From NCBI GenBank assembly GCA_014802535.1, contig JAAVCC010000011.1, positions 95,315 to 159,314 on the forward strand: a DNA stretch of 64,000 nucleotides. Reading direction: 5' to 3'. The notes beneath the pieces were generated by a model that made no database searches, had not been told where the DNA came from, and saw only the letters and a list, made by a program, of their open reading frames with translations. The stretch comes from Bacteroides sp. Its GTDB lineage: Bacteria > Bacteroidota > Bacteroidia > Bacteroidales > Muribaculaceae. Positions 48,839 through 49,651 of this stretch are shown here, one piece after another; position 1 is the first letter of the stretch, and the number at the start of each line of letters is the position of its first letter. The position numbers and the translations under genes are program-made.

Positions 48839-49651
48839 TCATGTCTGATCTACCATCAATCCATTTTTTATTATGTCAGTCCGTAACTGTCTCATTTGCT
48901 TAATCGAAGTACATTTACTAAATAGCTCCATTGTTTCATAAATAGCAGGATTTACATAAAAAACATTCTTAACTTTTACTCCAATTAAAAAATGAGGAAG
49001 AATACCATACCTAACCGATATTTCCGCCTGCTCGGGATAAACCGGTATATTTACTTTGGGCAATCCTACAGAATCGCATATTGAAGTAAAATTATTATTC
49101 TTTTTAAATGCTATATATGATAATGAATAACTTTTAGGCACCCATCCTATAAACATTAAATCTTGTTCAAAGTGTTCTGCAACCTCTATATTTTGACTTG
49201 TTGATACAAATATGCTCTTATTTTTATATTGATTTGAATTAATCGTATGCAGAATCGCTAAATAATATAGGTTTATCTTTTTACGTTCTTCTGAACCTAG
49301 ATTATTATATTTATTTAAAACAGCTTTCTTTTCTGAAAGGAAAGCATCCGCAAACCTTTTGTTTTCAGAAATGAACTCTGCCATCCTCTCCCTCCTATAA
49401 GGAGAACCTTTATCGGCCGTTTTTAGCGCAGTATTTAGTATTGCGTATATTCTTGAAAAATTATCTATACTAATATCATCCGGATCTATCCAATCATTAT
49501 CATTTAAGCAAATCCGCCCTTTCTCTCCTATACAAAAAATCATATATAATAATTGATCCATAGATGATGTATCTTCAAAATAGTGTTTTCTTAAGTTTGC
49601 ATCAGATTCACCTCGAGCAAACAGAGTTTTATGTCTTGATGGCGTCAACAT
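48839..49651 (-). CDS. Orphan hypothetical protein (270 aa) with a possible R-S-E type ADP-ribosyltransferase-like motif set
   Basis: Clean 270-aa ORF, divergent from the CBASS operon. It carries Y85-R86-R87, F148-V-S150-T151-S152 and Q208-A-E210-I-S-V, in the order and approximate spacing of ART regions 1-3. This is motif-level evidence only. Confidence 0.3.
   Translation of the reverse strand: MLTPSRHKTLFARGESDANLRKHYFEDTSSMDQLLYMIFCIGEKGRICLNDNDWIDPDDISIDNFSRIYAILNTALKTADKGSPYRRERMAEFISENKRFADAFLSEKKAVLNKYNNLGSEERKKINLYYLAILHTINSNQYKNKSIFVSTSQNIEVAEHFEQDLMFIGWVPKSYSLSYIAFKKNNNFTSICDSVGLPKVNIPVYPEQAEISVRYGILPHFLIGVKVKNVFYVNPAIYETMELFSKCTSIKQMRQLRTDIIKNGLMVDQT

Follow-up and report, generated by a model that had tools for sequence, protein, structure and literature searches.

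The locus considered here raises two questions: what is encoded by a 270-residue open reading frame (ORF) that lies between two recognizable antiphage systems, and whether the gene is still in working order. The ORF runs from ATG to TGA at 48839..49651 on the minus strand of the window, by which we mean the whole 64,000-nucleotide stretch of Bacteroides sp. DNA that was analyzed (contig JAAVCC010000011.1). A preliminary description had placed it between an Mza-like operon and a cyclic oligonucleotide-based antiphage signaling system (CBASS), transcribed divergently from the latter, had taken the gene to be intact, and had read in it an R / S-T-S / Q-x-E motif series of the kind found in ADP-ribosyltransferase (ART) toxins. 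The position of the ORF and the residues Y85-R86-R87, F148-V149-S150-T151-S152, Q208-A209-E210, R214, and H220 were found exactly as described, and the setting was confirmed with PADLOC. The reading that we favor, and regard as reasonably probable, is that the ORF belongs to an unnamed family of cholera-toxin-clade ARTs that serve as stand-alone toxic effectors in defense islands, and that the copy in the window is a damaged allele.

The major data for this assignment came from the relatives of the ORF. An exhaustive HMMER scan at E<=1e-3 yielded 275 clusters at 50% identity, with a typical length of 305 to 345 residues, and every source name among the family members is "hypothetical protein." For the conservation counts, 140 full-length members were aligned (mean column identity, 19%), and residues are numbered as in the window protein. 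Only four columns are invariant (140/140), namely, R13, S150, E210, and G224. R13, whose codon is CGA at 49613..49615 (minus strand), forms part of a (Y/F/A)-R-G motif located in the first beta-strand of the core (strand E8-15 of the structural model); the residue before it is Tyr or Phe in 120/140 members and Ala in the window protein, and position 14 is Gly in 130/140. The motif S150-T151-S152 (F-V-S-T-S; codons of the S-T-S triplet at 49196..49204, minus strand) is found on beta-strand E148-152 of the model, with Thr at position 151 in 104/140 members and either Ser (84 members) or Thr (56 members) at position 152. E210 closes the octamer P203-V-Y205-P-E-Q208-A-E210 (49022..49045, minus strand), which fits the X-X-phi-X-X-Gln/Glu-X-Glu template of the ADP-ribosylating turn-turn (ARTT) loop (PMC11281641). 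In this loop the column of Q208 holds Gln in 112 members, Glu in 21, and Asp in 4, and the column of Y205 is Tyr or Phe in 133/140. The serine and glutamate elements of the motif series first read by eye were therefore borne out, with S150 and E210 present throughout, whereas the arginine element was not; R86 is Arg in 25/140 members, and R13 is the conserved arginine instead. The risk of coincidence, which the preliminary description had conceded, was gauged with 20,000 shuffles of the protein. An ordered aromatic-R, STS, and [QE]xE series at spacings of 30 to 90 residues arose in 0.3% of them (1.4% when S[ST][ST] was allowed), so that the series is unusual on grounds of chance alone.

Kinship with ARTs was deduced from profile and fold searches in addition to the invariant residues. 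When the 140-member profile was compared with PDB sequences, it matched the catalytic domain of mosquitocidal toxin (MTX; 2cb6) with E=6.9e-4. The alignment spans a conserved His through FVSTS (FVSTT in MTX) to YPeQkEIslkgGllPhfi, which stands opposite FPNQDEITFPGGIRPEFI in MTX, and the conserved His, about 15 residues before the STS motif, aligns with an MTX His. A core-only profile, from which the family-specific insert described below had been removed, again matched MTX over the STS and QxE motifs (E=1.1e-3) and set E210 on the catalytic Glu197 of MTX. In Pfam, the Scabin-like family PF22596 was matched by 21/140 members (best E=1.7e-4), and any other Pfam family was matched by at most two. 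The 21 matches are weak and below the Pfam threshold, and neither the window protein nor P0002, its closest full-length homologue, matched PF22596; because the matches fall below threshold, the family is counted as a relative, not a member, of the Scabin-like family. No NCBIfam model was matched by any family member, and 0/140 members matched any of the 5027 models of PADLOC-DB v2 at E<=1e-3.

AlphaFold2 models were of similar confidence for full-length P0002 (predicted local distance difference test [pLDDT] score, 90.2; predicted template modeling [pTM] score, 0.88) and for the window protein (pLDDT, 90.1; pTM, 0.85). When both models were searched against the PDB with Foldseek, the top 50 matches of each (100/100) were exclusively ARTs. 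The best were the Rhs toxins TreX and TreTu (E, 3.7e-3 to 7.8e-3; probability, 0.99 to 1.00), and the others included cholera toxin A1, heat-labile enterotoxin, pertussis S1, Scabin, ScARP, pierisin-1, EcPltA, and MTX. Neither Foldseek nor the profile searches turned up a non-ART fold. The family thus combines the ART fold with a triad of invariant Arg, Ser, and Glu residues, a motif of the form S-T-[ST], and an ARTT-type loop containing Q/E-x-E. It is nearest to pierisin, Scabin, and MTX and to the Rhs-Tre toxins, within the R-S-E (cholera-toxin/ARTC) clade. The invariant residues, the profile match to an ART toxin, the PF22596 matches, and the fold searches together leave little room for a non-ART reading, and that the members are R-S-E ART enzymes is considered very probable.

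The arginine strand and the S-T-S strand are separated by an all-helical insert of about 120 residues (window residues 17 to 137; 49241..49603, minus strand). It is specific to the family, has GxKG and YYLxxLH(T) as conserved motifs of its own, and gave no match in any library searched. The distance from the invariant Arg to the invariant Ser is about 137 residues in the family, compared with about 50 residues in cholera toxin. Full-length members begin with a hydrophilic N terminus (MEEINKFLLRLGDY...) and were found to lack a signal peptide, an Rhs/PAAR delivery domain, and a lectin B-domain. The median pI of the family is 8.6; charge and pI do not separate a nucleic acid target from a protein target. 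One member, P0121 (479 residues; MDR0606314.1, from a Bacteroidales metagenome-assembled genome [MAG]), has its ART-like region from about residue 178, preceded by about 170 residues that make up an additional N-terminal domain, a possible fusion that could hint at a sensor or partner function.

Contrary to what had been supposed, the gene in the window is not intact; the ORF is the core left open in a gene of about 335 codons that three in-frame stops have cut. Full-length relatives have 330 to 340 residues, and alignment with them showed the window ORF to be short by about 37 residues at the N terminus and about 28 at the C terminus; it corresponds to residues 38 to 307 of P0002, at 67% identity, and comprises the ART core with the helical insert. 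P0002 is MDE6808555.1 from Muribaculaceae, in which R50 and E247 are the counterparts of R13 and E210. An exact protein match was confined to the source MAG (NCBI "hypothetical protein HDR74_07105 [Bacteroides sp.]"). The premature TGA at 48839-48841 (minus strand) falls in a column of Arg, Lys, or Asn in the homologues (VDQT followed by the stop, versus VNQER) and is reachable by one substitution from CGA or AGA. Behind it in the same frame is an untranslated remnant of the C-terminal tail (48755..48838, minus strand), made up of 27 codons at 48758-48838 and the ancestral TGA at 48755-48757, so that the minus-strand frame reads GLMVDQT, stop, FLEYCRNTGYKRYFTYDGVQYRINSVN, stop. The tail is present in all 140 aligned members, its first residue is Phe in 133 of them, and the remnant is identical to P0002 at 21/27 positions (78%), which is above the 67% of the core. 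Since the tail is still this similar to that of the homologue, the C-terminal stop is evidently of recent origin and not an established architecture. On the N-terminal side, a degenerate but recognizable remnant of the family extension (49652..49771, minus strand) reads ...FHLRLARILKDCAII, stop, REV, stop, TAHVYSFWTFIN, where the stops are a TAG at 49700-49702 and a TGA at 49688-49690 (both minus strand). The ATG of the ORF lies downstream of these two stops, at a column occupied by Ile or Leu in the homologues.

Two technical explanations for the stops were rejected. The 1300 nt of the region are base-identical in a MEGAHIT contig from ENA (174,203 bp) and in the Logan assembly of SRR11425450, and an assembly artifact was thereby ruled out by two differently built assemblies, though these possibly derive from the same reads. 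Recoding or read-through does not explain the stops, since they are of mixed type (TAG and TGA) and the neighboring genes give standard-code ORFs of up to 956 residues.

Inactivation of this gene was seen repeatedly in close relatives of the window allele. Among the alleles that cluster at 90% identity or more with the closest full-length homologue, some are intact and several are short; the short ones are 98.7 to 99.3% identical in DNA to the intact gene at L001:10001-11008, and each type bears a different lesion. These are a T825A change that turns Tyr275 into TAA (L028:1327-2334), a 1-nt deletion in codon 132 found in two samples (L029:73-1079 and L030:237-840), an insertion sequence with a DDE transposase after nt 382 (L032:60-1633), and a break after nt 550, immediately ahead of FVSTS (L031:2501-3103). 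Intact alleles coexist in sister samples. Counting the window allele, the gene has been knocked out independently five times within a narrow clade, a pattern that fits the one expected for a costly or self-toxic gene and that argues for the window copy being one more decaying allele. The window allele is most likely inactive or crippled, and outright loss of function is judged likely.

The genomic context of the family was examined at 15 loci from metagenomes and Bacteroidales MAGs, comprising Muribaculaceae, Prevotella, Bacteroides, Duncaniella, Cryptobacteroides, and Alistipes. No conserved neighbor was found across them, and none of the 15 had a macrodomain, NADAR, SecB-like, or other antitoxin-like partner; the gene thus appears, as had been suggested for the window ORF, to stand alone without an antitoxin or sensor. 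The neighborhoods include NACHT/nSTAND, putAbiC, AAA_15, DndB, ATPase_2/DUF234, AIPR with a methyltransferase, and DUF4007 with a PAPS reductase, and SIR2_2 adjoins two homologues. Among the 124 ORFs within 6 kb, PADLOC matches were obtained for AriA, AbiLi, DpdF, PbeA, PsyrT, KwaB, PtuA, and several PDC candidates. Of the genes directly adjacent at eight genome loci, 5/10 encode defense proteins, each of a different system (a pAgo-associated restriction endonuclease, PDC-S11, Septu PtuB, Kiwa KwaB, and an STK_OB kinase).

The two systems that flank the ORF in the window were considered as possible partners. No CBASS was present near any homologue examined, and the sole echo of Mza among the homologue loci was an AIPR gene with a C5 DNA methylase about 5 kb from P0004 (L005:14432-17005). 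A role as an accessory of Mza or CBASS was rejected, as there is no recurrent linkage in other genomes. AIPR is near the ART gene in only 2 of about 16 loci (L005 and the window), which probably reflects shared island ancestry and no functional link. In some lineages (L011:6570-7997, L012:532-1959, and L007:9029-11319) little space separates the ART homologue from other genes of its strand; only 4 bp lie between the end of a DUF8370/DUF8371 protein and P0173, and 6 bp beyond P0171 begin a 419-residue uncharacterized protein and a DUF2971 protein. Such neighbors could be lineage-specific partners or merely signs of dense islands. Outside the Bacteroidales, the distant member WP_025787421.1 (26% identity) is carried by Vibrio parahaemolyticus plasmid pVPTW011 (L026; NZ_CP133902.1, 19553-34032; match at 7001-7480), and another distant copy is on a Paraburkholderia megaplasmid. 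The Vibrio copy sits amid short same-strand genes (GNAT acetyltransferases, DUF3265, and hypothetical proteins) resembling an integron cassette array. No meaningful phage or viral relatives came from Foldseek against BFVD or from a tblastn search of 50,697 phage genomes.

From these data a mechanism is proposed for the intact members. Judging from the conserved residues, NAD+ would be bound through R13 and S150, and E210 would catalyze the transfer of ADP-ribose onto a macromolecular target. The acceptor is more likely to be of a non-arginine type, either a nucleic acid base, in the manner of ScARP and Scabin, or an Asn- or Cys-type protein site, because Gln dominates the first position of the ARTT motif. 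Gln occupies that position in C3, whose acceptor is Asn, and also in pierisin, ScARP, and Scabin, which modify guanine and, as more recently found, cytidine in DNA and RNA (PMC11281641, PMC12945103). The protein would act as a self-contained toxic effector of defense islands, of the abortive-infection type and without an antitoxin. Since there is no partner gene, control would be either intramolecular or exerted by a host or phage factor; the helical insert, proposed to be a regulatory or substrate module, and/or the N- and C-terminal extensions may restrain the enzyme until a phage cue is received. That the family is an anti-phage abortive-infection effector is thought to be a little more probable than the contrary, and it is the family, not the window copy, that presents a good candidate for a new single-gene defense toxin. 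A more specific version is offered only tentatively: the intact protein might be a single-polypeptide abortive-infection system and the first anti-phage ART of the R-S-E clade, autoinhibited by its helical insert and terminal extensions without an antitoxin, triggered by a phage component, and ADP-ribosylating a nucleic acid base or an essential protein so that replication is halted, with the recurrent knock-outs representing its autoimmune cost.

Several points weigh against the favored reading and the alternatives drawing on them were considered. No single match to an ART is strong, the best E values being 3.7e-3 for Foldseek and 6.9e-4 for the profile, with TM-scores of 0.2 to 0.5, which are low because of the large family-specific insert. 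The window protein by itself gave only noise against Pfam, NCBIfam, PADLOC, and PDB sequences (DUF3300, E=0.12; FkbH, E=0.023). The equivalence of R13 to the toxin arginine is drawn from its invariance, the form of the motif, and the strand position, with no significant residue-level alignment; the insert-removed profile did give a "YRG" match to PDB 2kxi, which was not significant alone and was given no weight (the entry is probably NarE). The defense association is of the qualitative, guilt-by-association kind, though consistent. With respect to the window copy, three randomly placed stops would leave a 270-codon open core in 3.2% of cases, and some shorter members naturally lack the N-terminal extension (P0006, 300 residues; P0020, 289 residues; P0186, 278 residues); for these two reasons the truncated core product could retain some activity. 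A coincidental motif series in a protein that is not an ART would be in keeping with the unmatched single sequence and the unconserved R86, but it is very improbable given that S150 and E210 are invariant in 140 members, that the MTX match aligns both motifs, that 21/140 members match the Scabin-like Pfam family, and that the Foldseek matches are ARTs without exception. A less remote alternative, though still doubtful, is that the 270-residue product is functional as a minimized and perhaps deregulated core enzyme made from the internal ATG. All invariant residues, the ART core, and the insert are kept in a confidently modeled protein, and both the 3.2% figure and the naturally short members suit this explanation; it must account, however, for the loss of a tail that no aligned member lacks, for the recency of the stop indicated by the 78% identity of that tail, for a start that is a chance Met following two stops, and for the breakage of the same gene in four other ways in sister strains.

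Two further alternatives accept the ART fold and concern its use. The enzyme could be an NAD+ glycohydrolase that depletes NAD+ on activation with no modification of a target, as the R-S-E triad and an NAD-binding fold would equally fit hydrolysis. SIR2 and TIR defense effectors and some ART-fold toxins deplete cellular NAD+, and effectors working in this way are common in these islands, where SIR2_2 was seen beside two homologues. This explanation is nevertheless unlikely, as the nearest relatives are all transferases and a full ARTT-type loop is kept, with its aromatic residue (133/140) and the Gln/Glu two positions before the catalytic Glu, residues that in ARTC enzymes take part in acceptor recognition (PMC11281641). 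Alternatively, the gene might not be directed against phages at all and could encode a toxin of interbacterial or host conflict, or it might be carried by mobile elements as cargo or as a selfish addiction gene and simply accumulate in the same variable islands. The nearest structural relatives (Rhs TreX and TreTu, cholera toxin, pertussis toxin, and Scabin) are indeed secreted or injected, genes for integrase, transposase, and Bro-N proteins are found close to some homologues, and one copy lies in the cassette-array-like stretch of the Vibrio plasmid. On the other hand, the hydrophilic N terminus and the lack of a signal peptide, Rhs/PAAR domain, or lectin B-domain do not suit an exported toxin, no immunity gene is conserved beside it, the immediate neighbors are repeatedly bona fide defense systems, and no phage or viral relatives were found; this alternative is likewise considered improbable. 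An ART effector of abortive infection is thus preferred to both.

Comparison with known systems places the family close to several toxins. With the pierisin family (pierisin-1, ScARP/SCO5461, and Scabin; PF22596) and MTX it shares the ART fold and the R / S-T-S / Q-x-E pattern (PMC12945103, PMC11281641), and with ScARP and Scabin also the Gln at the first ARTT position. This group supplies both the best sequence-profile match and the sole recurrent Pfam family (21/140). It differs in that the present family has the helical insert and conserved N- and C-terminal extensions, has no secretion signal, lectin, or autoinhibitory linker domains, and is cytoplasmic, being found in defense islands of Bacteroidales and some Proteobacteria. 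The best structural matches, the Rhs toxins TreX, TreTu, and Tre1 of the type VI secretion system (PDB 9gco, 8s2m, and 8s2n), belong to the same R-S-E clade. TreX requires the binding of TrxA to a C-terminal extension that lies far from the active site (PMC11606950), and this extension may be the closest analogy for the conserved tail and extensions of the present family. The Tre domains are, however, the C-terminal parts of large polymorphic Rhs toxins, bear an ExE motif of the arginine type, and have a cognate immunity protein encoded next to them, whereas the present proteins are free-standing, of about 335 residues, without an immunity gene, and mostly QxE. Cholera toxin A1, heat-labile enterotoxin, and pertussis S1 share the fold and the triad but are secreted, host-directed AB5 toxins activated by host factors, with no helical insert and a different biological context. 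Here, the stretch after the catalytic Glu, E-I-S-x-x-x-G-x-L-P-H-F, resembles "QDEITFPGGIRPEFI" of MTX and also "EQEVSALGGIPYSQI" of cholera toxin. DarT of DarTG and CmdT of CmdTAC are alike in being ART toxic effectors of abortive-infection-type phage defense (PMC11618068, PMC12945103); they differ in belonging to the H-Y-E (diphtheria-toxin-like) clade, in contrast to the invariant R, S, and E found here, and in having a dedicated antitoxin (DarG, or CmdA with the chaperone CmdC) where the present family has no conserved partner.

A literature search of incomplete coverage found no description of an R-S-E-clade anti-phage ART or of this family. As the known anti-phage ARTs, DarT and CmdT, are of the diphtheria-toxin clade and guarded by antitoxins, this widespread family, which stands alone in defense islands of gut Bacteroidales and reaches Proteobacteria, would carry their logic over to the second half of the ART superfamily. 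It would pose the question of how an unguarded toxin, with a built-in helical module in place of an antitoxin, stays silent and then fires. Being absent from Pfam, NCBIfam, and PADLOC, the family is missed by current annotation and defense-finding pipelines. The natural knock-outs hint at a fitness cost and also warn that the window copy is probably unsuited for cloning. The interest of the locus therefore rests with the family, while the window copy, as a broken allele, is itself of low interest as a candidate.

In the window, the ORF is embedded in an island of low G+C content (39000-52400; a block of about 13 kb with 33 to 35% G+C, compared with 42 to 46% in the flanks) between mnmE (37579-38994) on one side and a Sel1-repeat gene (52477-53691) and an M3 peptidase gene on the other. 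Owing to this low G+C content and its position between housekeeping genes, the block is an acquired defense island. A hot spot of integration may lie downstream of mnmE; a single ARAGORN run gave only a tRNA-Ser at 12366-12455. According to the PADLOC models, the island holds a complete Mza system at 39637..48312 on the plus strand (a C5-methyltransferase/MzaA-like gene at 39637-40674, MzaB, MzaC, MzaD, and MzaE/AIPR at 46006-48312) and a two-gene CBASS at 49815..51970, also on the plus strand and divergent from the ART gene, with a patatin phospholipase effector (49815-50930) and a CD-NTase (50936-51970).

About 440 bp (48313-48754) separate the stop of MzaE from the ancestral stop of the ART gene. 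They hold a 56-residue ORF at 48514-48684 on the plus strand (...THSTAIEGSTVTEIEN...), which by eye resembled the N-terminal remnant of a Fic protein; this idea was dropped, as it found no support from Pfam at E<=10 or from tblastn with the intact Fic protein adjoining P0013. Scans for promoters and terminators, which were not built for Bacteroidetes promoters, gave matches no commoner than in shuffles. The start of the patatin effector differs between the mechanical ORF list, which begins it at a TTG (371 residues), and the public gene call (361 residues), and if the shorter call is taken, only about 70 to 80 bp of divergent intergenic sequence separate it from the ancestral ART start.

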